Below, in pieces: positions 1 to 12,125 of a stretch of DNA of 12,125 bases (positions within the stretch are counted from its first letter, which is position 1; the number at the start of each line of letters is the position of its first letter). Source of the stretch: a virus. Taxonomy: Duplodnaviria; Heunggongvirae; Uroviricota; Caudoviricetes. A model generated the notes under the pieces. The model worked only from the letters and a program-made list of their open reading frames with translations. It did no database searches and was not told where the DNA came from. The stretch spans positions 1 to 12,125 of IMG/VR virus record IMGVR_UViG_2534681700_000010; one strand, given 5' to 3'. The translations under genes and the position numbers were made by a program.

Positions 1-996
1 TTACCCTTCAAACTCTTGCTCCACAGAATCATTATCTGCGCATACAAAACCAAGCGCCTCCCCAAATCTCTCACGCGGAAAACCAGATTTGGGCACCCCC
101 ATAGAACTGTATGAACATCCCGGCATATTGGGTTTTTTGTCAAAGAGATCTGCAACCTGGCGGATCCATGTAGAATTTGGCCCGATCATTTTGACCAAAT
201 ACCAAATAATACATATCGCACTATAAAGACGCTCACTCGCAGGGGCATCTATTCTCAGTGAATTGAAGAAGGTTGTATTTGGTATTGGGATTCCAGCATG
301 TTTTCTATTCCAGATTCTGGAATGATGCGCACAACGATTACGCAAAAGATTCAGACATTGCAACCATTTGGTTAATGTTTGTTTATTGTCGATATTTAAT
401 CTTTTAATTATTTTGGCTTGTATACCACCATTCAGCATCGCGTAATATTTTGACATTTGGCCAAAATCCCAGGCTTCAACAACTACCCAAAAAGGGATCT
501 CCTTCCCCTGATTCAAATGCCAAAGAATGCACTCATCCCGGCTATCTTCCAGCTTTTTATCAAGCTTTTTCTGCCATTTTGTAAACGTGCTGGGTTTTCC
601 ATCATTAAGATAACGCTGGTTTATGTAGGATTCCTTTCTGTAAGCAAGCGGATCATATCGCCCTAATTCATGAGCGATAACGGAACGAATATGAATCTCA
701 ATACGTTCCAGGGCATCCATCATTAACATTCGAAGTTTTTTATCAAAAAGATAAAGATCGTATGCCTGCTCGAATGTAGTACCAGGGAGAAATTCATCGC
801 TCCTGAATGAAAGGCCTTCATCATTACAGCGAATGACGCGCGACGTATACCAAAACCCGGACAAGCGATAATAACCAACCTGAGACAGTTTCCTCATGGC
901 TCGCTTACAATCTCTGATTACCATGCCACGACTCAATAAAATCTCAAGCTGCTCTGAATATTCCTTATGTGGCTTTGCGGCAATCATACTCGTCAC
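1..996 (-). CDS. Abi_2-family (AbiD/AbiF-like) abortive-infection protein
   Basis: Complete ORF, stop TAA at 1-3. N-terminal EQLEILLSRGMVI...YYRLSGFWY and C-terminal LRNRCAHHSRIWNR match the conserved motifs of Abi_2 proteins as I recall them. The track start at 996 is GTG; the first ATG is at 987; neither has a strong SD. Hand counts of sampled 60-nt lines give about 25-40% GC, against about 50% in int. Confidence 0.75.
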   Translation of the reverse strand: MTSMIAAKPHKEYSEQLEILLSRGMVIRDCKRAMRKLSQVGYYRLSGFWYTSRVIRCNDEGLSFRSDEFLPGTTFEQAYDLYLFDKKLRMLMMDALERIEIHIRSVIAHELGRYDPLAYRKESYINQRYLNDGKPSTFTKWQKKLDKKLEDSRDECILWHLNQGKEIPFWVVVEAWDFGQMSKYYAMLNGGIQAKIIKRLNIDNKQTLTKWLQCLNLLRNRCAHHSRIWNRKHAGIPIPNTTFFNSLRIDAPASERLYSAICIIWYLVKMIGPNSTWIRQVADLFDKKPNMPGCSYSSMGVPKSGFPRERFGEALGFVCADNDSVEQEFEG

Positions 997-1446: not shown

Positions 1447-1712
1447 GGTTGACACTTTCCGGCTTAAGACCTTAACAAATCTTAACATCGCAGGTTGACA
1501 CACTTGACACTTTTTCGCGAAAAACCTTATCAAACCTTAGCATTTCTAAGCATGGCAACTTGACACTTTTCGCGATTTTTTCGGCTTTTTGACGTGGTAA
1601 ATCTGGCGAAAGGCCAGTAATGGCGGGGCTTACAGCGAGGTTGACACTTTTTTCGCGTTCAGAGTGTAAAGTGTCAACCTGGCAAGCTGCTCAACTTGAC
1701 ACTTTTTGATGT
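1447..1712. repeat. Array of TTGACAC-T(4-6)-CGCG-like repeats: five direct, one inverted, plus a degenerate half-copy
   Basis: Seen directly: TTGACAC at 1449, 1495 (half copy), 1504, 1560, 1641 and 1696 on the plus strand, and inverted GTGTCAA at 1671-1677. Four copies are followed by TTTT(T)(T)CGCG. Irregular spacing (46, 9, 56, 81, 55 bp). Interspersed AACCTTA / CTTAAC short repeats at 1468-1540. Sits immediately 3' of the HTH-protein gene (stop at 1712-1714). Confidence 0.6.
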
Positions 1713-2239
1713 CATTGATGGTCTGATTTTTCCCATTCAGCCAGGGCGTTTAGCCCGGCTTCACTCCATGATTCCAGTTCATCGGGATAATCACCTGCAA
1801 CATAGCAGAGTTCGCAACGCAGCATACGAATTGCCAGCCTGGCATTACCCCGCAAATTGTATTTTTCAAAGTAATGCTGCCCTTCATCATCCTCAAGGCA
1901 GATAGCACCATCATCAAGAAAGTGCACTTCCCAGCCTAATTCCCCGGCTGCATCCTGCACACGCTGCTGTATGTCATCGTCCGTTGCCGGCGCAGGAATT
2001 TTTCCGTCTCTGGCCTTAACTGCTTTCCAGAACTCGCCCCACGTCATTTCCAGCGTTCTTTCTGGCCACATTTCAGAAACTGTGTCTTTTCCCTGTGCTG
2101 CTGGGCTGTTCCGCTGTTCTGTCGCTTCCACATCGATTTTTTTACCGGACATGACCACTTCGCCTTTCTCGATCCAGTCGTAAACTGTCTGGCGGCTTAC
2201 GCCTTTGTGTTTGGCATATTCTGCCTTGCTCATCAGCAT
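1712..2239 (-). CDS. HTH DNA-binding protein (175 aa); possible packaging-redirection (Rpp / small-terminase-like) or regulatory protein
   Basis: N-terminus MSKAEYAKHKGVSRQTVYDWIEKGEV is a classic helix-turn-helix signature. GGTGAG SD-like sequence upstream of ATG 2239. Separated by 6 nt from the stop of the upstream ORF (operon). Functional assignment is inference. Confidence 0.7.
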   Translation of the reverse strand: MLMSKAEYAKHKGVSRQTVYDWIEKGEVVMSGKKIDVEATEQRNSPAAQGKDTVSEMWPERTLEMTWGEFWKAVKARDGKIPAPATDDDIQQRVQDAAGELGWEVHFLDDGAICLEDDEGQHYFEKYNLRGNARLAIRMLRCELCYVAGDYPDELESWSEAGLNALAEWEKSDHQ

Positions 2240-2245
2240 TATGAC

Positions 2246-2917
2246 TCACCCTTCTTTTTCCAGTTGAGCCAGCCGCCCGGATATTTCTTCCAGTTTTTCC
2301 AGGGCTGGCTTGCAGGCCGCATCAATAACGTCCCGGACCATTCCGGCAAGCTGTTCTTCTGCTGTCGGCGTTGTTACTTCCACGCCCGATGGTTTCCCGC
2401 CCTTATCCCAAACACCAAGCGGCACGAGCGCAACGTGATCGATAAGAAATGGCGTACCCTCAATAAAAAAATTGTCCTCGCCCATTACATCAGGAACTTC
2501 AGCCCCACCGGACGCACCACAAAACACAACCGACGGGCTGGTGGATACCTCCCCCCGTGCTTTCTGGATGTAATCGATGATTTCCTGCCCGTAAATCCGG
2601 CATACGCCCCACACCTCGTCACCGCGAATATACGGCAACATGACGGTGCCAATAATGCGCGACCGTTCGCCCACGTCTTCAAGGGTTTTGCTTTCGGGAT
2701 GGTCGATAATGACGGGTACTCCGGCGCAACGTTCCAGGAACTGCGGATTGAGATAAGTTTGCGGTGAACGCCAGACAAATTCTTTTTCTTCGGCGCGGTA
2801 GGCCATTCCGGTTCCTGTGATACGCAGGTTAACCAGCCACATGTTGGAAAACTGATAAGGCGACGGTAGCTGTCCGTCCCGAATCTGCTTCGCCGCCTCA
2901 ATTTCTGTTAAAAGCAT
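2246..2917 (-). CDS. Hypothetical protein (223 aa)
   Basis: Long ORF in the same orientation as its neighbours and tightly packed against the downstream HTH gene. ATG at 2917 has only a weak SD. No family recognised. Confidence 0.65.
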   Translation of the reverse strand: MLLTEIEAAKQIRDGQLPSPYQFSNMWLVNLRITGTGMAYRAEEKEFVWRSPQTYLNPQFLERCAGVPVIIDHPESKTLEDVGERSRIIGTVMLPYIRGDEVWGVCRIYGQEIIDYIQKARGEVSTSPSVVFCGASGGAEVPDVMGEDNFFIEGTPFLIDHVALVPLGVWDKGGKPSGVEVTTPTAEEQLAGMVRDVIDAACKPALEKLEEISGRLAQLEKEG

Positions 2918-2981
2918 AATGTTATCCGGTTATAAGCAATAAGCCCCGCCAAATCCGGCAGGGCTGAACTCAGCACGTTTT

Positions 2982-3566
2982 TCATGCCCCCGCGAGGCTT
3001 GCAACGTTAATTTTGACCAGGCGACGGGGAGGGATTTTGAAGGCGTTCAGCCAGACGTTCGGATCTCCCTGATATTCAGTAATACGACGACCGGCTTCAT
3101 CCATTCTTACGGTTTTACCCAAATGGCCCGGCGTGTTTTCCACGGCCCACTGAGCACTTTCCTGAGCAGCCTTGTAAATCTGATCTTCCAGCACCGCCAG
3201 CGTTGCAGAATCTGAAACGGAACGAATATCCACATCACTGAATTTTTTAGCCAGCTTCTGTGCGCCAATTAATGCACGTTTGCGGTAATCCATCGACTTT
3301 TCACCAGCAAACGGGGCCGGAGCGCGACGCCCCATATTGCTGTATGCGGAATCCGCTTTAGCCTGGGCTTCTGCCAGTGAGGATTCATCTTCGACTGACG
3401 CGACGATGTTTTGATTCGCGTTATCCTCGTCTGCTTTTGTGAAATCCTGTGCGGGGATCGCATTCAGAATTTCGATAATCTCCTGCGGAGTGCTGCCCTG
3501 CGACTCTGACAGAGCGTTAACCACCTCCATCAGTTTTAATCGCAAATCTTCTTTGCTTGCTGGCAT
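2982..3566 (-). CDS. Hypothetical acidic protein (194 aa from ATG 3566)
   Basis: ATG at 3566 preceded by AGGTGG with a 5-nt spacer; the track start at 3575 is GTG. Acidic, Ala/Glu-rich protein with no recognised domain. Confidence 0.7.
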   Translation of the reverse strand: MPASKEDLRLKLMEVVNALSESQGSTPQEIIEILNAIPAQDFTKADEDNANQNIVASVEDESSLAEAQAKADSAYSNMGRRAPAPFAGEKSMDYRKRALIGAQKLAKKFSDVDIRSVSDSATLAVLEDQIYKAAQESAQWAVENTPGHLGKTVRMDEAGRRITEYQGDPNVWLNAFKIPPRRLVKINVASLAGA

Positions 3567-3605
3567 TGTTACCACCTCTCTTTTTTCACCAAAAAATCAC
3601 GACCA

Positions 3606-3779
3606 TCAGGCCGGACGTTCTACGGGATAAAGCGCCCGCTGCATTAAACGCCGGGCGACCTCATGAATGCTCGGAGCAATCCCCAGCGGAGAATTGCGGC
3701 GTTCCTCGTCCTGGATGCGCTGTAATGCTTCAATCTGATCACGAGCGAGTAAAACGGGTTTCACGCTGGCTTTTCTCAT
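3606..3779 (-). CDS. Small protein (57 aa from ATG 3779), possible DNA-binding
   Basis: AGGAGA sits 7 nt upstream of ATG 3779; the track start at 3803 is TTG. First gene of the leftward operon after the terminator cluster. The DNA-binding fold is a guess from the KPVLLARDQIEALQRI pattern. Confidence 0.5.
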   Translation of the reverse strand: MRKASVKPVLLARDQIEALQRIQDEERRNSPLGIAPSIHEVARRLMQRALYPVERPA

Positions 3780-3903
3780 AGTCATATCTCCTGAACAAAA
3801 CAATGATTATGATTGCACAAACTGAAATGACGATCTACATCATTGCAATTTATGAAACAATAACGCATGATGATCGCGTTCTTCCCATTGACTTCAATCA
3901 CCT

Positions 3904-4808: not shown

Positions 4809-4814
4809 CGTTAC

Positions 4815-5152
4815 AACTGTCTACCAACTGTCTACCGATATAATTGATTGATTTATTTAATGTTATTAACTCATAACAAAAAAACAATCTGCAAACTGTC
4901 TACTAACTGTCTACCGCATTAATACATTGATAATTAATGATTTTTTCAAAGTGGTAGACAGAGTAGACAGTTAAAAGAGAAATTTTAAAAATGAACCCTT
5001 AACTATCTGTTTTTATATACCCCCCGTGGTTTAGGAATATAGAAACAACTGTCTACTCTCTACCACATTTAAAAATATCTATATAATTCAATGACTTAGC
5101 CGGTAGATAGTTGGTAGAGGGTTAAGTATTACTGTCTACCAACCGTCTACCT
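4815..5152. repeat. Putative replication origin: AACTGTCTACC iterons in both orientations around AT-rich tracts
   Basis: Direct copies at 4815-4825, 4826-4836, 4894-4904, 4905-4915, 5047-5057, 5131-5140 and 5141-5152. Inverted copies (GGTAGACAG / AGTAGACAG) at 4953-4961 and 4962-4970. Degenerate copies at 5001-5010 and 5102-5119. Very AT-rich spacers. Lies immediately 3' of the primase/helicase gene (ends 5179). Confidence 0.7.
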
Positions 5153-5178: not shown

Positions 5179-6984
5179 TTATGTTCTGTCGTTAATCCCT
5201 GTTGCTGCTGGCAACCAGCCATCAGCATCATCATCTAACAGAACATTTGTTATCACTCGCCCTTTATCTGGGCCTTTAGTGCATTTAGCCCGCTTATACT
5301 CCTTTCCGTATTCCGCCATAGCACCCGGCATATCAGTGCCAAAGCGTTTCAGTGATACTGGTTTTCCCAGGCCATGCGCTGACATATAGGCTAAATAAGC
5401 ATGATACAGATATCGTCTCGGGCTAAATGGCACTATTCCCGCATTGCCCACCATCATTCCTTCACATTTAACCAACGACATCAGATAGCCGCAAAAGTCC
5501 ACCAGTGAATCACCCTCGCGTTTTATCACCAGAGCCTCTTCTGATTTCTGCTGCTCATATAACAGACGTCTGGCTTCATCCTGGTCAGAAAAACGAGTAA
5601 GCAGGTGGCGAATCACTACCGCCAGTTCGCATTCTATCTTTTCCGCCAGCATGGGATCGCGTTCGTTCTCCGGTACGACCTCAGAGAAATTAAATATCAC
5701 CCTACGACGCGAGATCCCCCCGCTTCGGTCACTGAATGACATGGCGTTATTGTTTACCGCAAGCACTACTGCCGGAATACGTGTGGAGTAGGGGGCTTTA
5801 TGTTTCGGGTCAATTGCCACCTTGTCGCCGCCAGTAATTGCCTTAATTCCTGCACCATCGCCAGCGTAGCGAGTCATATCCGGCATGATAATCAGCGAAA
5901 AGCCAACTACTAACGCGCGTTCCCTTGCGTCTTCCAGCGCCTTCATGCTTGCCGATACTGTGTTGGCCTTACCCGCCAGCATGGTACAAATCTCAGCCAT
6001 CACACTTTTACCGCTTCCGCCTGGGCCTGTTACCTCAAGGAATAACTGCCAGTCGTACCGGTTCGCCAGTACCATGAATAATGCCGCCAGTACGCGATCA
6101 GCTTTACGATCATTATCTGCCACCGAACGACGCAGCCACTTCCAGAAATTCGGCGCATGTGTTGCCAGCGTTTCCCCCTCTGCTGGCGGGCTGAACGGTA
6201 ATTCACTGGCATTTAACAACCAGTCATTTTTGTTATGCTCCCGAAAATTTCCCGTCCGGGTATCAAATACCCCGTTACTGAATCCAATAAGATTCCTGTC
6301 TGCCCCGCCCATAACAGGCAGGCTCAATTTCATTGTGTCTACGGCAAATTTAATGGCGTTTTGCGAATAACTGATTCCAGCATCAATAAAAATCTTCGCC
6401 ATAGACCGCTGGAGTTCCTTATCAGATACAGGCACCCAGACAATTCCGTTGTAATGGTGAACTACATCAGAATCATCATTTATAGCCAGTGCTCTTCCAT
6501 AATATTCAAGTAACACTTCCCCTCTCTGGCTGGCTCCCATCTGATTTAGTGCTGGCCTGGGTAGGTCAATATTTTTTGTGGTTAATTTCATCGCTGAAAC
6601 TTCCCCACTCTCTGCCTGTTCGCGGATCCGTTGCAGGTAATCGCGCCAGTTCTCCGGCTCCCGGTCGGTGATACCTTTGTATAATTTCGCCTCCTGTACG
6701 CCAGCCAGCGCCAGTTTTTCAGCGATAGCGTTGATCTGGATTGGCTCTATCTCCCCCGCAAGATAGACACGTGCAAAGCGGCGTTTCTCGTCAATAATGC
6801 GGATATTCACCAGGTCTGCCAGTTGCTTCGGCCCCAGGTAAACAGGTGGCACGTTATCGCCGTGTTTTCGTCCTTCGCTTTCAATCCAGTGTTGAGCATG
6901 GGCGTAAGCATCCGTCCCGGCAAAAATGATTACCTCGGTGAATTTATCCTTCGGCTGATATTTTAAATTCGGTGCGTTTTTCAC
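5179..6984 (-). CDS. Primase/helicase replication protein (P4-alpha / D5-like, SF3 helicase P-loop), 601 aa
   Basis: Walker A GPGGSGKS present, with a typical phage/plasmid primase C-terminal architecture. GTG start at 6984 overlaps the upstream stop (GTGA) and is preceded by GGGAGGT with a 5-nt spacer. The N-terminal region has no obvious toprim motif by eye. Confidence 0.9.
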   Translation of the reverse strand: MKNAPNLKYQPKDKFTEVIIFAGTDAYAHAQHWIESEGRKHGDNVPPVYLGPKQLADLVNIRIIDEKRRFARVYLAGEIEPIQINAIAEKLALAGVQEAKLYKGITDREPENWRDYLQRIREQAESGEVSAMKLTTKNIDLPRPALNQMGASQRGEVLLEYYGRALAINDDSDVVHHYNGIVWVPVSDKELQRSMAKIFIDAGISYSQNAIKFAVDTMKLSLPVMGGADRNLIGFSNGVFDTRTGNFREHNKNDWLLNASELPFSPPAEGETLATHAPNFWKWLRRSVADNDRKADRVLAALFMVLANRYDWQLFLEVTGPGGSGKSVMAEICTMLAGKANTVSASMKALEDARERALVVGFSLIIMPDMTRYAGDGAGIKAITGGDKVAIDPKHKAPYSTRIPAVVLAVNNNAMSFSDRSGGISRRRVIFNFSEVVPENERDPMLAEKIECELAVVIRHLLTRFSDQDEARRLLYEQQKSEEALVIKREGDSLVDFCGYLMSLVKCEGMMVGNAGIVPFSPRRYLYHAYLAYMSAHGLGKPVSLKRFGTDMPGAMAEYGKEYKRAKCTKGPDKGRVITNVLLDDDADGWLPAATGINDRT

Positions 6985-7277: not shown

Positions 7278-7643
7278 TTACTCCTGCGTCTTGCTCTGAA
7301 TTACCTGATAACCGCAACTGGTCAGCAATTCGATAAATTCCGGCAGTGTTCCGAAACAGCAATTATCACGCAGCCGTTCGCGGGATACTTCAACGCCGTT
7401 TTCGTAGTGACTCACCATGCGTCCGGTAAAATGCAGATCATCATCGTGATGGCACGTTGACGGCTTAATCAGTCGCGCACGTTCTGCCAGCTCCAGCAAT
7501 GCTTCAACACTTCCGGCAATTGCACCATCCGGCAGGTGGTAATTACGCACTATGCGCCCGTTCTCCACATGGACCAGTAGCTGCCCGGTAAATTTCTCGT
7601 CAAACTGAATGCGGTTAAGGTCGGTAAGTGACAGGTTAATCAT
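7278..7643 (-). CDS. Hypothetical protein (121 aa)
   Basis: ATG at 7643 preceded by AGGAGG with a 6-nt spacer. Start overlaps the stop of the upstream small ORF (ATGATTAA). Confidence 0.65.
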   Translation of the reverse strand: MINLSLTDLNRIQFDEKFTGQLLVHVENGRIVRNYHLPDGAIAGSVEALLELAERARLIKPSTCHHDDDLHFTGRMVSHYENGVEVSRERLRDNCCFGTLPEFIELLTSCGYQVIQSKTQE

Positions 7644-7839
7644 GGCGTACCTCCTGACGAATACGGGCGGCGAATACCATCACGCAGCCATCAGGAGATT
7701 GCTGGCGTGCTTCCTGTTCGCTGGTGGCCTCGATGTGAATCACGCGCGGTTGTGCCGTGCTCAGAGCGATAAAACGCCAGATGTATTTATTCAGGTTGTG
7801 CGAGTCCCGCCCTTGCGGGTGTGTGGTATGATTTCTCAT
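7636..7839 (-). CDS. Hypothetical small protein (67 aa), first gene of the primase operon
   Basis: Internal ATG at 7839 of the long track ORF, preceded by GAGGT. Its stop overlaps the next start. Upstream of this point the same reading frame has antisense-like composition. Confidence 0.5.
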   Translation of the reverse strand: MRNHTTHPQGRDSHNLNKYIWRFIALSTAQPRVIHIEATSEQEARQQSPDGCVMVFAARIRQEVRHD

Positions 7840-7905
7840 AGCTACCTCGATAATCTTGCTATCGTTGGTGGTTAGAAGCCCTGCGAGTGGTAACGACACT
7901 TGCGG

Positions 7906-7992
7906 GGCTTTGCCTTTAAGGTGCAAGTCACCTTTGAGGGTTATGCTACTTTTAGGTGACTTGCACTTCAAGCCTTTTTTTATTTTTTTTTC
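7906..7992 (+). promoter_or_regulatory. Large hairpin (perfect 12-bp inverted repeat inside an extended stem) followed by a T7-A-T9 tract
   Basis: GTGCAAGTCACC (7921-7932) and GGTGACTTGCAC (7955-7966) are perfect reverse complements. Outer GGCTT (7906-7910) pairs with AAGCC (7970-7974). T-tract at 7975-7991. Sits between the divergent RHH-like gene and the primase operon start. Confidence 0.5.
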
Positions 7993-8032
7993 TACGTATA
8001 CTGAACGCCACCTAACAGTAAGGAGGCCAGTA

Positions 8033-8212
8033 ATGCCAACGGGTACAACCAACAACAAATCACAACAAAAAACGGCTAGAATCCCTCTAGAAGTTTTAAG
8101 CGAAATGAATTTGGTCAAAGAGGAAAACGAAACAGACGCGCAGTTTATCGTTACAGCCATGCGTGGCGAGATCAAACGCCGCCAGCGCCGCAAGGCCAAA
8201 GAACAGGAGTAA
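8033..8212 (+). CDS. Small ribbon-helix-helix-like DNA-binding protein (59 aa); candidate repressor
   Basis: TAAGGAGG ends 6 nt before ATG 8033. TATACT (-10-like) at 7997-8002. Protein is hydrophilic with common E. coli codons; TARIPLEVLSEMNLV looks like an RHH beta-strand plus helix. Conflicts with the 402-aa minus-strand track ORF, which I judge antisense here. Confidence 0.55.
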   Translation: MPTGTTNNKSQQKTARIPLEVLSEMNLVKEENETDAQFIVTAMRGEIKRRQRRKAKEQE

Positions 8213-8269
8213 CCATCACCAGCGCCGTGGTGTGAGGAACTACGGTGCATCGTTTTACAGGGCAGCGCC

Positions 8270-8449
8270 ATGACCAACAAAGAATCAACCAAAACACCAT
8301 CACCAACTCGTAAGAGACGACGCAAAAATATAGCGCATGAACATGAATCAGAAAGATTCGCACCTTGTTCGTTTGCTCTTGAGAAATTCCTTAAAGAGCA
8401 CAGGAAAAAGCTCTCGTTGCAAACCTTGGAACGAACCAAATCTGACTGA
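8270..8449 (+). CDS. Possible small basic protein (59 aa), not in the ORF track
   Basis: ATG 8270 to TGA 8447-8449, translated by hand as MTNKESTKTPSPTRKRRRKNIAHEHESERFAPCSFALEKFLKEHRKKLSLQTLERTKSD. Weak SD and several rare codons (AGA, CGA, ATA, AGG). Confidence 0.3.
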   Translation: MTNKESTKTPSPTRKRRRKNIAHEHESERFAPCSFALEKFLKEHRKKLSLQTLERTKSD

Positions 8450-8653
8450 TCACATTGCCCACCAGCCGCAAATGTGGCATTGTTGGTGATGCGTTCAAGT
8501 ATGTAGCTTTTCCACTGGCGGCTCTCTGCGGTCGCCTTTGTTTTATCCAGAACGAAATCAGACATCAGATTGATCAGCACCTGGCGACCTGACAAAATCG
8601 CATCAGTCGCGCCACCAGCAAAATTTTTTGCTTTCCGGACAGCGTGGCCAACG

Positions 8654-8672
8654 ATATTTTGCAGCAAAATAT
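8654..8672. promoter_or_regulatory. Perfect 19-bp palindrome ATATTTTGC-A-GCAAAATAT
   Basis: Read directly from the sequence: 9-bp arms around a single central base. Lies in the unresolved region between the antirepressor gene and the small plus-strand ORFs. Confidence 0.35.
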
Positions 8673-8836
8673 TCTGCATTTCTGGCGTGCTGTGGCGACG
8701 GTGATCAGCGCCTTCACATTGAACGAACTTGTCGCTAAAATTCACCCACATAGCAAACATCGCGGTGCTGTAGGTAATTCGTTCACAAAGGCGCTCCGGC
8801 AACGGGGCGCTTTCTCTTTTTGTAACGGTCAGAGCG

Positions 8837-9637
8837 TTACACATGGCTGTTTTCCTCCATGCGACGGGCTAACCAACGCTGCGAAAGACGAATTAATTCA
8901 GCCTTCCGCTGGTGGTAGTCCTGGCCTAACTCAATCAGCGTGATATTGCTCTGCTCAAGGTAAGAAAGGTGCTCAAGCTGCAACGTGCTCATGTGGTCGC
9001 GTGGTTCGCCTGTAATGCCGTTCGCCAGTGCCCACTGTTTTGCAGTCATGCCACCCAGCACGATACGCGCCAGCATGTTCGCTTCCGTGGTGTAGTGGTG
9101 CTGGAGTGTGTTTTTACCCAGTTCAGCCCGGTACGCCTCCAGCGCGGCACACATTGGCTTAAAGTAGCTGGCAACTGTGATACGGGCTTTCAGTTCCCGG
9201 CGTAACGCTGCGGAACGAACAGGCGCAACCTTGTGTAGCTCCTCCTCGCATTTGATAAAGTACTGGCGAACGGCGCGGCCCTGTTCGGTACGTTCGACCA
9301 TCGCCAGTTCTTTCGCCATGTTCACTGTGATGATGTACTCAAGAGCGGTTTGCTGGCGAGATTTTGCGCTCACCGGATCGGGTCGGCTCAAATATTCAAC
9401 AACCTCATAATCCACGCCTTCCGTGAACCCGTATTCTTCAATGCGCCCCTTGATCCACGAACGGAAAACGCGCCCTACACCTAACGCCTTATGTAACGCT
9501 CTGGCGCTAACAATAGTGGTTTCACTCCCGCCAATAACGCCGGAAATAATCGGGATAATTTCGCCGAAATTTTGCAGATTCTGGTTTTCAGGCCGAACGA
9601 AGCCCCGCCCCTGTACGGGCGTTTTTGGAAATTTCAT
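8837..9637 (-). CDS. Phage antirepressor, AntA-domain protein (266 aa)
   Basis: ITVNMAKELAMVERTEQGRAVRQYFIKCEE and the preceding IPIISGVIGGSETTIVSARALHKALGV match AntA/AntB-type N-terminal antirepressor domains. ATG 9637 preceded by AGGAG with a 5-nt spacer. Confidence 0.85.
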   Translation of the reverse strand: MKFPKTPVQGRGFVRPENQNLQNFGEIIPIISGVIGGSETTIVSARALHKALGVGRVFRSWIKGRIEEYGFTEGVDYEVVEYLSRPDPVSAKSRQQTALEYIITVNMAKELAMVERTEQGRAVRQYFIKCEEELHKVAPVRSAALRRELKARITVASYFKPMCAALEAYRAELGKNTLQHHYTTEANMLARIVLGGMTAKQWALANGITGEPRDHMSTLQLEHLSYLEQSNITLIELGQDYHQRKAELIRLSQRWLARRMEENSHV

Positions 9638-9714: not shown

Positions 9715-9912
9715 TCAGGTAGCTGTTCCGCGTGATTCCGCAATACGCTGATTAATCCACTCGTCAATTTCACTCTCAACGAAAGCAATAGCTCGCGAGC
9801 CAATTTTTACAGGTTTAGGAAAACGCCCTTGGGCAATGAGTTTATAGATCCATGCCCTTCCATACCCTGTACGGCGCATGGTTTCTGGCATACGAATTAA
9901 AGATTGTGACAT
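9715..9912 (-). CDS. alpA: AlpA-family transcriptional regulator / excisionase-like protein (65 aa from ATG 9912)
   Basis: MRRTGYGRAWIYKLIAQGRFPKPVKIGSRAIAFVESEIDEWI matches the AlpA motif pattern. GGGAGA lies 8 nt upstream of ATG 9912. The track's longer version (start 9981) is probably an N-terminal over-extension. Confidence 0.85.
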   Translation of the reverse strand: MSQSLIRMPETMRRTGYGRAWIYKLIAQGRFPKPVKIGSRAIAFVESEIDEWINQRIAESRGTAT

Positions 9913-10026
9913 GATAATCGTCTCCCGTTGTTTATTGATGCCTACGGGAGACATTGAAGCAGGTAAGACATTGGATATCACCGCAATTGCGGTGAATGAT
10001 ACCGCAATTGCGGTATAGGACTACAA

Positions 10027-10782: not shown

Positions 10783-10910
10783 TCTGTGCTACCTCGCACC
10801 CTCTGTAAAAGTGGCTGTGCCAGCCCGCAGAGGTGTACGGGTTTTCAGGAGCGACCCTAGACACAGCCTTTTCTTAATCGCTCAAAGTCTACTACTGTAT
10901 ACTCAACCAG

Positions 10911-12125
10911 TCACCCGCATTTTCCGAACTCACCATGCACCACATTTCCGCCATGCTCGAGCGAATCCATATAGTCGGCATACCACTGGAGCATCTCCCG
11001 GCGACCATCCAGATATTGCGCATGGTTGTATGTGCCACGAATTGAGTTTTTATCGACGTGTGCGAGCTGCGTCTCTATCCACGCGGTGTTATAGCCCTGC
11101 TCATGCAAAATGGTGCTCATGGTGTGCCGGAATCCATGACCAGTAACGCGCCCGGCATAGCCGATACGACGAATGAGCACATTCATCGCCATTTCACTCA
11201 TTGGCTTACTGTGGTGAATACGACCGGGGAAAATAAACTGATACTGGCCTGTCATGTTTTTTAACTGCTCCAGTATTTTTATCGCCTGTTCTGGTAATGG
11301 CACACAATGCGGACGGCGCATCTTCATTCGTTCTTTAGGCACTTCCCACAAACGATTATCAAAATCGATCTCCTGCCATTCTGCCTGCCGTAATTCCCCG
11401 GGTCTGACACCTGTCAGAATTAATAGCCGCATTGCCAGTTTGACGATCTGGCTTCCGGTGTACGTATTAAAAACGCGGAAAAATTCCGGCAGTTCGTCGG
11501 CCTTCAAATAGGCGTAATGCTCTTTTTTATGTGGAGCAAATGCGCTCACCAGGTCAGGGGCTGGATTATATTCGGCGCGTCCGGTGATGATTGCGTACCG
11601 GAACACCTCGCCGCATCGCTGGCGAACCTTACGCAATTTTTCAGTCGCACCACGGTCATTAAGACGGGAAAGAACCGCCAGCAATTCCATCGGCTTAATT
11701 TCTGCGATCGGCCTACCGCCAATGTACGGAAAAACATCTTTTTCAAACGTCTCGATCATTTCCTCGGCGTATGACGATGACCACCTGTCGATCCGCTTTT
11801 CGTACCATTCGCGAGCAATACCCTCAAAAGTATTGCCAAATTTGCTCGCCTGTTCTCGCTTTTGGGCTTTTCTGGCCTCACTTGGATTTATACCACCAGC
11901 AAGAAGCCTTTTAGCCTCATCCCTTGCCGCCCTGGCATCAGACAGAGACACATCAGGGTACACACCCAACGACAACATTTTGGGCTTTCCTGCAAACCTG
12001 TAGCGCAGTCGCCACCCTTTCGAACCGTTCGGCTCAATGAGCAACGAAAGCCCGTTACCGTCATTGAGTGTATAAGCCTTTTCTTTCGGCTTCGCGCGCC
12101 TGATGGCAAGGTCTGAAAGCAGCAT
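10911..12125 (-). CDS. int: Tyrosine site-specific integrase, P4/IntA family
   Basis: Close by-eye match to E. coli IntA-type integrases: N-terminal LSDLAIRRAKPKEKAY...DGNGLSLLI arm-binding region and C-terminal HGFRHT...RGTYNHAQY catalytic region. The ATG falls on the last three bases of the window, so the true start may be slightly upstream and outside it. Confidence 0.95.
   Translation of the reverse strand: MLLSDLAIRRAKPKEKAYTLNDGNGLSLLIEPNGSKGWRLRYRFAGKPKMLSLGVYPDVSLSDARAARDEAKRLLAGGINPSEARKAQKREQASKFGNTFEGIAREWYEKRIDRWSSSYAEEMIETFEKDVFPYIGGRPIAEIKPMELLAVLSRLNDRGATEKLRKVRQRCGEVFRYAIITGRAEYNPAPDLVSAFAPHKKEHYAYLKADELPEFFRVFNTYTGSQIVKLAMRLLILTGVRPGELRQAEWQEIDFDNRLWEVPKERMKMRRPHCVPLPEQAIKILEQLKNMTGQYQFIFPGRIHHSKPMSEMAMNVLIRRIGYAGRVTGHGFRHTMSTILHEQGYNTAWIETQLAHVDKNSIRGTYNHAQYLDGRREMLQWYADYMDSLEHGGNVVHGEFGKCG

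Follow-up and report, generated by a model that had tools for sequence, protein, structure and literature searches.

What do four tightly packed genes on the minus strand do at positions 1712-3779 of a 12,125-nucleotide (nt) viral sequence, IMG/VR record IMGVR_UViG_2534681700_000010 (Caudoviricetes)? We refer to this whole stretch as the window. An earlier, sequence-only reading had regarded the genes, which encode proteins of 57, 194, 223 and 175 amino acids (aa), as a candidate packaging-interference module. The whole 12.1-kb window is one minus-strand mobile element, and this element is a Gram-negative, enterobacterial satellite of the phage-inducible chromosomal island (PICI) type, with the four genes as its late operon. 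The earlier reading had rightly seen a satellite with an operon in the helper-hijacking position; its emphasis on packaging alone was too narrow, as half of the operon appears to concern capsid assembly. With a rough probability of 0.55, argued from homology and genomic context, we read the genes as a late helper-hijack operon that would supply an alternative scaffold and a protease freed from its tether, together with a binder of the packaging site and a small regulator. We infer the biochemical activities of these proteins and their effects on capsids and packaging.

A conserved four-gene operon

The operon and the signals around it are as follows.

3975-3950 (about) and 3942-3912, minus strand: two terminator-like hairpins in tandem, each with a T run, separating perC from the operon, from reading the sequence
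3833-3806, minus strand: promoter-like site TCGTCA-16-CATAAT before the 57-aa gene, a consensus match only
3606-3779, minus strand: gene of the 57-aa protein, with its ATG inside a 65-aa open reading frame (ORF) that opens with TTG and AGGAG 8 nt before it, a good ribosome-binding site
2982-3566, minus strand: gene of the 194-aa protein, with its ATG three codons into a 197-aa GTG ORF
2246-2917, minus strand: gene of the 223-aa protein, from the ORF list
1712-2239, minus strand: gene of the 175-aa protein, from the ORF list
1417-1705, no strand assigned: array of eight GGTT(G/T)ACACTTT copies (one inverted), beginning 10 nt past the 175-aa stop codon

The ORF list exactly recovers the four co-oriented genes that had been described, with gaps of 39, 64 and 6 bp, and RefSeq annotates the same four coding sequences in a 98%-identical island of E. 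coli A17. The boundaries proposed earlier are also present. On one side, after perC and upstream of the operon, lie the two terminators, the hairpin at 3942-3912 having 12 pairs followed by ATTTTTGCAG in the signal scan; on the other, downstream, every one of the window's seven exact TTGACAC copies lies in 1449-1702. The promoter-like site is flanked by a 9-nt direct repeat, ATSATTGCA (3809-3817 and 3839-3847). No Rfam family came near threshold within the operon.

All four genes are real, conserved across genera and under purifying selection. Against close relatives, the ratio of nonsynonymous to synonymous substitution rates (dN/dS) is 0 for the 223-aa gene, 0.07 (0.07-0.2) for the 194-aa gene and 0.16-0.35 for the 175-aa gene. 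The frames are intact in orthologues from Klebsiella aerogenes, Pantoea and Enterobacter, at 43-65% amino-acid identity and with synonymous sites saturated.

Middle genes matching opposite ends of one phage head protein

The 223-aa protein is 54% identical to residues 1-226 of the 430-aa head protein of Escherichia phage Rac-SA53 (ALP46870), and the 194-aa protein is 59% identical to residues 280-422 of the same protein. Because the two align to opposite ends of one 430-aa protein, the satellite keeps both ends of one head gene. Both also match phrog_6216 (545 positions), the 223-aa protein at positions 115-328 and the 194-aa protein at 402-544. The sequence-only reading had seen no assignable motif beyond a helix-turn-helix (HTH), a statement that no longer holds: the 223-aa protein passes the Pfam threshold for PF09979 (DUF2213/Pa193_gp24; 28.1 bits, cut-off 22, residues 39-168), and the pair appears to correspond to a phage head protease-scaffold protein in two halves. 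When the pair was searched with tblastn against 50,697 phage genomes, 14 phages were matched. The phage head module runs in the order TerS, TerL, portal, MuF-like, DUF2213 gene, 205-aa gene and major head protein (342 aa in Rac-SA53). As judged by homology, these alignments trace the 194-aa and 223-aa genes to one ancestral head gene in temperate phages of the Rac-SA53 type.

In the satellite the head gene is split in two and its order is swapped, so that the C-terminal piece is encoded first. A lysine/glutamate/alanine-rich charged coiled coil of ~55 residues, which links both ends in the phage protein, is missing. Unlike the phage DUF2213 gene, the window pair makes two polypeptides, and the window holds no portal or major head protein gene beside it. 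The C-terminal ~130-150 residues of the 194-aa protein are homologous to the phage protein, and its N-terminal ~40 residues are satellite-specific. Across the family, the alignment begins with this satellite-specific segment (MPxxKEDLKAKLLEVVxALA...), continues with an acidic linker and ends in the domain in common with phages, where PFSGEK, DSATL, AGRRI and GDP are invariant and where the ~130-145 C-terminal residues reach 59-63% identity to phage proteins. A 90-aa protein of the O104-type islands was considered as the source of the new N-terminus and showed no similarity.

Copies of the 223-aa type (221-229 aa) stop after the first helix in E. coli, Salmonella, Citrobacter, Enterobacter, Pantoea and Klebsiella, and E. 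coli shares with K. aerogenes and Pantoea one gene order: 57 aa, 190-199 aa, 221-224 aa. With the intact 438-aa gene of the adjoining prophage, the two copies of the Pantoea satellite have just 55% and 63% identity, which indicates an ancient capture. At that locus (Pantoea agglomerans, L010:8140-14973) two TerS homologues end the satellite; directly beyond them remain the final 111 codons of a Rac-type terL (80% identity with residues 332-442), and portal, MuF-like, intact 438-aa DUF2213, 208-aa and 342-aa head genes come after these. The satellite thus either adjoins the left part of a helper-type prophage at terL or has taken its place.

In databases the 194-aa protein is named 'NUDIX hydrolase' and the 223-aa protein 'TolA', and neither feature is found in the window proteins. 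Many phage members (P0254-P0270; gp4 of Klebsiella phage Chronis, L003:3599-5212) carry a NUDIX domain fused N-terminally to the DUF2213 head protein, an unusual joining of an enzyme domain to a scaffold/protease protein. The false names were carried over from this extra domain and, for 'TolA', from the charged linker; no NUDIX domain was detected by Pfam in the 194-aa protein, as the N-terminal domain of its phage relatives is not carried. The misnaming spans hundreds of RefSeq and UniRef entries (P0115-P0205 among them). Homology to an unrelated function such as metabolism, which would have spoken against a packaging or capsid module, is thus not what the NUDIX label reflects.

A putative protease joined to a putative scaffold

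PF09979 is now named by Pfam after gp24 of Pseudomonas phage Pa193, a putative scaffolding protein of 478 residues whose gene lies beside decoration and capsid genes. The AlphaFold (AF2) model of the 223-aa protein, with a mean predicted local distance difference test (pLDDT) of 87.6, consists of a beta-rich domain followed by one long C-terminal helix (residues 186-222). Its top 35 Foldseek matches in the PDB are mostly herpesvirus assemblin proteases or T4 gp21, the others being Mce1 transporter chains, and PHROG families of head maturation proteases match weakly. A family profile search with the 223-aa protein was dominated by the NUDIX domain of the phage members. Across 26 satellite and phage homologues, His73, Glu101, Thr126-Ser127-Pro128 and Glu153 are invariant and His161 nearly so; in alignment order, the His-Ser-His succession is that of the assemblin triad. 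From the naming after Pa193 gp24, the assemblin-like model matches, the PHROG matches and this residue order, the phage protein is therefore read as an N-terminal protease fused to a scaffold. P2 gpO and lambda C/Nu3 likewise hold protease and scaffold in one gene, a comparison that we draw from general knowledge. By analogy with Pa193 gp24, the C-terminal region of the phage protein may bind the interior of the capsid shell.

A winged-helix protein beside a repeat array

The 175-aa protein has 114 relatives, all from Enterobacterales and all without names, in which the first 41 residues are nearly invariant and the remainder is variable. In its model (pLDDT 88.8) a winged helix (residues 1-43) is followed by a disordered linker (45-56) and an alpha/beta domain (60-170) with no known relative. 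The HTH noted earlier is this N-terminal winged helix, and it resembles the DNA-binding domains of lambda TerS and RppC. A match to phrog_57 (TerS) covers residues 1-42 only (profile positions 11-57 of 199), and phrog_575, 'Cox-like excisionase and repressor', matches at 3.5e-4. No Pfam terminase family matched the protein, and searches with phmmer and a profile gave no sequence link to TerS or to any solved structure. Among the 50,697 phage genomes tblastn found no full-length relative, just the N-termini of Nu1-type TerS proteins, weakly.

Exact TTGACAC occurs seven times in the window, where 1.56 copies would be expected, and 1 of 200 shuffles reaches seven; an eighth, degenerate copy of the array motif lies at 1417-1428. 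On the gene strand the motif reads AAAGTGT(C/A)AA(C/G)C. Interleaved with it, at 1419-1548, is a second element of CTTAG-like pentamer pairs 5 nt apart (CTTAG-N5-CTTAG; CTAAG-N5-CTAAG on the gene strand), for example CCTTAGGAAATCTTAGG, which is conserved in Enterobacter and may be the site of a second protein. Both motifs recur downstream of 175-aa homologues in Klebsiella (56% identity) and Enterobacter (37%).

We collected 80 IMG/VR loci with the profile of the 175-aa family, 42 of them of the E. coli type. Wherever an E. coli-type locus extends far enough downstream, 5-7 copies in forward and 1-2 in inverted orientation lie within 650 bp; the remaining 8-14 kb of these loci hold 0-4. The array thus belongs to the 175-aa gene, which, in the manner of a TerS gene, adjoins a conserved putative recognition site.

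Other roles for the array were considered and set aside. The array is not the replication origin, because different iterons lie by the primase gene and because it persists in islands with other replicases (RepA-type helicase or DUF927). Nor are the repeats promoters: the scan called none, and six of the seven exact repeats point against the neighbouring genes. Between the array and the island end lie 1.4-2.5 kb of variable accessory genes, which makes an arm of the attachment site (att) unlikely.

The accessory spot beyond the array varies, with Abi_2 in the window (1-996, minus strand) and, elsewhere, a pair of AAA ATPase and DUF4435 genes or a DUF3800 gene with one unknown gene (L013:8703-10659, L001:7178-8370 and L007:7507-8877). 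It looks like a defence-gene hotspot. An Enterobacter island carries a KAP NTPase at the opposite side, just upstream of the winged-helix gene.

In satellites of K. aerogenes and Pantoea, two TerS homologues occupy the slot of the 175-aa gene, after the protease gene; the N-terminal HTH of one of them is 48% identical to that of Rac-type TerS, and its C-terminal tail is similar. It is mainly because sister satellites hold TerS homologues there that we read the 175-aa slot as a packaging-specificity slot. In two Klebsiella loci (L005 and L006, ~9000-18500) the satellite has the array and a homologue, 171 aa long, of the 175-aa protein; it is followed by a DUF5681 gene or remnant, a truncated major capsid gene of the DUF2184 type and a full E217-like tail gene set. 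We take the DUF5681 gene of L006, a locus read from our own translation, to encode a TerS. Neither locus has terL or a portal gene, and they form a second satellite-prophage junction inside packaging or head genes.

A small putative DNA binder at the head of the operon

The 57-aa family has 36 representative relatives at E<1e-3, and its alignment (a strand KPVLL, a helix, G-x-A-P-S and a second helix) suggests a ribbon-helix-helix DNA binder, a pattern that is the sole basis for this assignment. No Pfam, PHROG or PDB entry matched the protein or its profile, and the 50,697 phage genomes contained no full-length relative. A gene of this type lies upstream of the winged-helix gene in most of the 80 related IMG/VR loci, and accompanies the 175-aa gene in every E. 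coli-type locus having upstream sequence. Two E. coli types exist, the window copy being 68% identical to that of the O104:H4 type.

Constant ends and an exchangeable middle

The 42 E. coli-type loci divide into 17 with the 194-aa/223-aa pair, 17 with a cassette of 380-aa and 107-aa genes, 7 without a cassette and 1 without upstream sequence. All those with upstream sequence keep the 57-aa-type and 175-aa genes, and all those with enough downstream sequence keep the array. The operon is therefore modular, with constant ends and an exchangeable middle cassette. The alternative cassette, which has no family match, replaces the pair between perC and the 57-aa-type gene; besides the 17 IMG/VR loci it is found in E. 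coli O104:H4 2011C-3493 (L013:11275-14569).

Thirteen of the 17 pair loci have the architecture of the window, and the other four add 205-aa and 679-aa genes. In E. coli STEC005 (L014:40267-45098) and in L015, L047, L053 and L056, these two genes sit between the 223-aa and 175-aa genes. The 679-aa protein has a lytic transglycosylase domain (phrog_7694), the 205-aa gene belongs to phrog_11810, and both have phage relatives. The 205-aa gene of the STEC005 island was compared with the 205-aa gene of the phage head module as a possible copy, and the two have no similarity.

The 175-aa gene with its array occurs in 167 of 5426 complete E. coli genomes (about 3%), five times more often than the pair (34 of 5426). 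Some of the porcine enterotoxigenic E. coli genomes ETEC1747, ETEC4077, ETEC4090 and ETEC1738 hold three or four separate copies of the pair, that is, several related satellites per chromosome.

A candidate helper family

The head module of the Rac-SA53 type is present in 88 of the 5426 complete genomes. Among the matches listed, which cover 60 of the 88 phage-positive genomes, pair and module occur together in at least 12 of the 34 pair genomes, where 0.4-0.6 would be expected by chance (hypergeometric P <= 6e-14). Clonality among some strains means that fewer of these co-occurrences are independent. The co-occurring genomes come from otter, baboon, cattle, pigs, goats, crow and water. In STEC005 a Rac prophage with this head module sits at ttcA, 6 kb away from the satellite. 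This co-occurrence makes Rac-SA53-type phages and prophages a putative helper family. Their genomes measure 47-52 kb, and their terminase is of the headful kind (Terminase_2 TerS and Terminase_6N TerL; the Rac-type proteins have 363 and 442 aa).

Some Rac-SA53-type prophages carry enterotoxin genes. The Rac-type portal of STEC005 (L014:6252-7688; Phage_portal_3, phrog_146) is named 'anti-CBASS protein Acb1 family protein' by RefSeq, probably a misannotation.

Proposed mechanism and its alternatives

In the helper-hijack reading, the 194-aa protein would compete with the helper scaffold for coat protein and replace it by a shorter scaffold inside the shell, comparable to CpmB and Rcm of the Staphylococcus aureus pathogenicity islands (SaPIs). 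The 223-aa protein would supply the maturation protease in untethered form, and its C-terminal helix may dock on the new N-terminal helix of the 194-aa protein. Satellite-sized capsids and a loss of helper progeny would be the expected outcome. A reduced shell would make sense given an island of ~14 kb against a phage of 47-52 kb. The winged helix of the 175-aa protein would bind the adjacent GGTT(G/T)ACACTTT array and so mark satellite DNA for the helper terminase, either as an adaptor on helper TerS (an Rpp-like logic) or as a TerS surrogate. The 57-aa protein would be a small DNA-binding regulator travelling with the 175-aa gene.

A more far-reaching version joins these parts, and we put it forward tentatively, as the less probable of two outcomes. 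The helper protease-scaffold would have been dismantled, with the helices of the 223-aa and 194-aa proteins reassembling non-covalently, and a headful phage's coat protein would be built into smaller shells. Together, the 175-aa protein and array would form a third packaging-specificity device of satellites, neither TerS nor Rpp, combined freely with capsid cassettes.

Several results weigh against the helper-hijack reading. The Foldseek matches of the 223-aa model to assemblin and T4 gp21 are weak (E 0.03-0.1, probability at most 0.93, template modelling score (TM) 0.3-0.4). The candidate triad His73/Ser127/His161 comes from alignment order, not from superposition. Neither the 194-aa nor the 223-aa protein has a sequence match to the deposited fragment of Pa193 gp24, and the correspondence of the 194-aa protein to the capsid-binding hairpin of gp24 is conjectural. 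The C-terminal domain of the 175-aa protein is unlike any oligomerisation or TerL-binding region of TerS, the array has no counterpart in the 50,697 phage genomes, and no cos or pac cleavage site was identified. Alleles of the 175-aa gene (95% against 82% identity) do not co-vary with the cassette in the IMG/VR loci, which weakens the claim of a match to one helper terminase. Finally, only about a third of the pair genomes show the putative helper, and some of those are clonal.

The alternative that survives best leaves the pair aside and takes the 175-aa protein and array as unrelated to packaging, serving Xis/Cox-like control of recombination directionality or transcription, or a single-protein, centromere-like maintenance of the excised satellite. 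The Cox-like phrog_575 match fits, as do the binding of Xis/Cox-like proteins to direct-repeat arrays, the independence of 175-aa alleles from the capsid cassette and the constant company of a small putative DNA binder. We nevertheless consider it unlikely, given that the array lies outside the att arm, 1.4-2.5 kb of variable genes from the island end, that AlpA already adjoins int and that a partition NTPase is absent. The TerS homologues in the same slot of sister satellites also speak for packaging, and the orientation of the exact repeats, with none called a promoter, speaks against transcription control.

Somewhat less probable still is a purely anti-phage pair, in which a dominant-negative scaffold fragment and an untargeted protease would poison Rac-type head assembly with no role in satellite packaging or resizing. 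Homology to the helper head protein with loss of the linker would fit such poisoning; the pair is optional (half of the related islands have another cassette or none), the phage is present in about a third only of pair carriers, and interference and defence genes are known in PICIs (PMC6739421, PMC6092414). Against this, the satellite needs helper capsids for its own spread, and both halves, candidate catalytic residues included, have long been kept intact across genera. The pair also lies in a late operon with a putative packaging factor and not in the accessory hotspot, where Abi_2, DUF3800 or a PARIS-like AAA ATPase with DUF4435 is found.

That the 175-aa protein is a true Rpp, forming a heterodimer with a lambda-type TerS and directing it to a satellite cos site, appears improbable. 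The sequence-only reading had offered an Rpp-like protein as an example, and as family membership this fails. No similarity to RppC (6hn7_A) was found by phmmer (E up to 1) or by a 44-sequence profile (E up to 10) across all PDB chains. The protein has 175 aa against the 144-153 aa of Rpp proteins, and its C-terminal domain is alpha/beta, not a three-helix dimerisation domain with a long coiled-coil helix (PMC6739421). Within 2 mismatches the window has no match to the lambda-like cosN GGGCGGCGACCT, and the co-occurring phage type has a Terminase_2 TerS, not Nu1. The lack of RppC similarity, the different C-terminal fold and the missing cosN lead us to place the 175-aa protein outside the Rpp family, even if its mode of action could be similar.

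Functionless decay of a captured phage gene, to which the non-native order of fragments of a longer gene might point, is scarcely credible and already contradicted by the conservation data: dN/dS is 0-0.2, intact frames in identical order persist in E. coli, Citrobacter, Enterobacter, Klebsiella and Pantoea at 50-62% identity, and the satellite-specific N-terminal segment is itself conserved.

The element around the operon

The rest of the window has the layout of a Gram-negative PICI: int, alpA, a primase-replicase gene followed by the origin, and accessory genes at the end, with no virion shell or lysis genes. Its other features are listed here.

10911-12125: P4-type tyrosine integrase, from family searches
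10799-10867, minus strand: int-alpA RNA motif, Rfam RF02996 (49.8 bits, gathering score 35.8), in the gap that separates the integrase gene from its neighbour
9715-9981: AlpA; an AntA-domain protein is also encoded in the element
5179-6984: D5-type primase-helicase; DUF4222 is also present in the element
4813-5150, both orientations: at least 10 copies of an 11-nt iteron, AACTGTCTACC, around an AT-rich core directly after the primase-helicase gene
1-996, minus strand: Abi_2 accessory gene, beyond the repeat array

The iteron region is likely the replication origin. Past it, from right to left, come ProQ/FinO, PerC, the four-gene operon, the repeat array and Abi_2. Pfam and PHROGs searches found no major capsid, portal, TerL or head-tail connector among the window ORFs, and the element therefore falls outside the capsid-forming PICIs (cf-PICIs). 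The island measures ~14 kb overall. Region 7640-8840 has no convincing gene; it holds a 402-aa minus-strand ORF without a family match, shows an AT skew that rises to +0.32 at 8001-8500 and gave no Rfam match (E up to 1). In related islands this region carries an Icd-like gene and a plus-strand YlcI/YnfO gene.

Significance and comparison with known systems

A literature search found no description of this module. The studied E. coli PICI EcCICFT073 has Rpp, full-size capsids and no capsid morphogenesis genes (PMC6092414, PMC6739421), and a survey records a serine protease as occasionally present in PICIs (PMC10085698). If the helper-hijack reading is true, the window would represent satellite capsid and packaging hijack in a form not described before, within a second, fairly common enterobacterial satellite lineage that stands nearer to the staphylococcal islands in combining a scaffold mimic with a packaging factor, built from parts of other origin. 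The pair would be a natural experiment in a prohead protease uncoupled from its scaffold. The conserved protein-and-array pair, found in 167 of the 5426 complete E. coli genomes, offers a testable packaging role, and Rac-SA53-type prophages are a testable candidate helper family. Correction of the propagated names 'NUDIX hydrolase' and 'TolA' concerns hundreds of database entries.

For the packaging factor, the nearest precedents are the Rpp proteins (RppA, RppB and RppC) of E. coli cos-type PICIs. Those have 144-153 aa and a three-helix dimerising C-terminus and act with lambda-type cos sites (PMC6739421, PMC9026076). Like them, the 175-aa protein is a small satellite protein with a TerS-like N-terminal winged helix, a conserved DNA-contacting part, a variable remainder and a proposed satellite-specific site. 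It differs in having no sequence similarity, another C-terminal fold, no lambda-type cosN and a multi-copy array in place of a single R3-like site. As with the TerS of SaPIs and other satellites, a putative packaging-specificity gene ends the late operon, and the slot in sister satellites holds genuine TerS homologues; unlike a satellite TerS, the 175-aa protein is covered by TerS profiles for its first ~45 residues only and has no recognisable oligomerisation or TerL-binding region.

On the capsid side, P4 Sid, TcaP of the PICI-like elements (PLEs) and Ccm of SaPIbov5 share with the window pair the smaller shells, here proposed, made from helper coat protein. Sid and TcaP scaffold the shell from outside, and Ccm is homologous to a coat protein; unlike the window pair, none comes from a protease-scaffold gene. 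The donor phage protein, with its apparent N-terminal prohead protease and C-terminal scaffold or coat-binding part, resembles P2 gpO and lambda C/Nu3, from which the satellite departs by uncoupling the two activities into separate genes. Compared with Pa193 gp24 and the PF09979 proteins of PB1-like and Rac-SA53-like phages, the 223-aa protein passes the family threshold and the pair covers both ends of the Rac-SA53 member. The window gene is split and swapped, and it lacks the ~55-residue coiled coil, the NUDIX domain of some members and the flanking portal and major head genes.

The closest parallel is with SaPI CpmB (which acts with CpmA) and Rcm of SaPIpT1028, where a satellite protein has the coat-binding end of the helper scaffold joined to a different, shorter remainder (PMC12409344, PMC6893505). 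The 194-aa protein has this same construction, with the helper scaffold end in common (59-63%) and ~40 different N-terminal residues. In both cases the late operon holds a packaging-specificity gene and the helper packages by headful (PMC12409344, PMC6893505), gene and helper being putative for the window. Small capsids are a proposal in the present case. Unlike CpmB and Rcm, the homology in the window is strong (59% over ~145 residues) and is not confined to a short C-terminal helix; and the donor appears to be a protease-scaffold fusion, of which the satellite has also kept the protease half as a separate gene.

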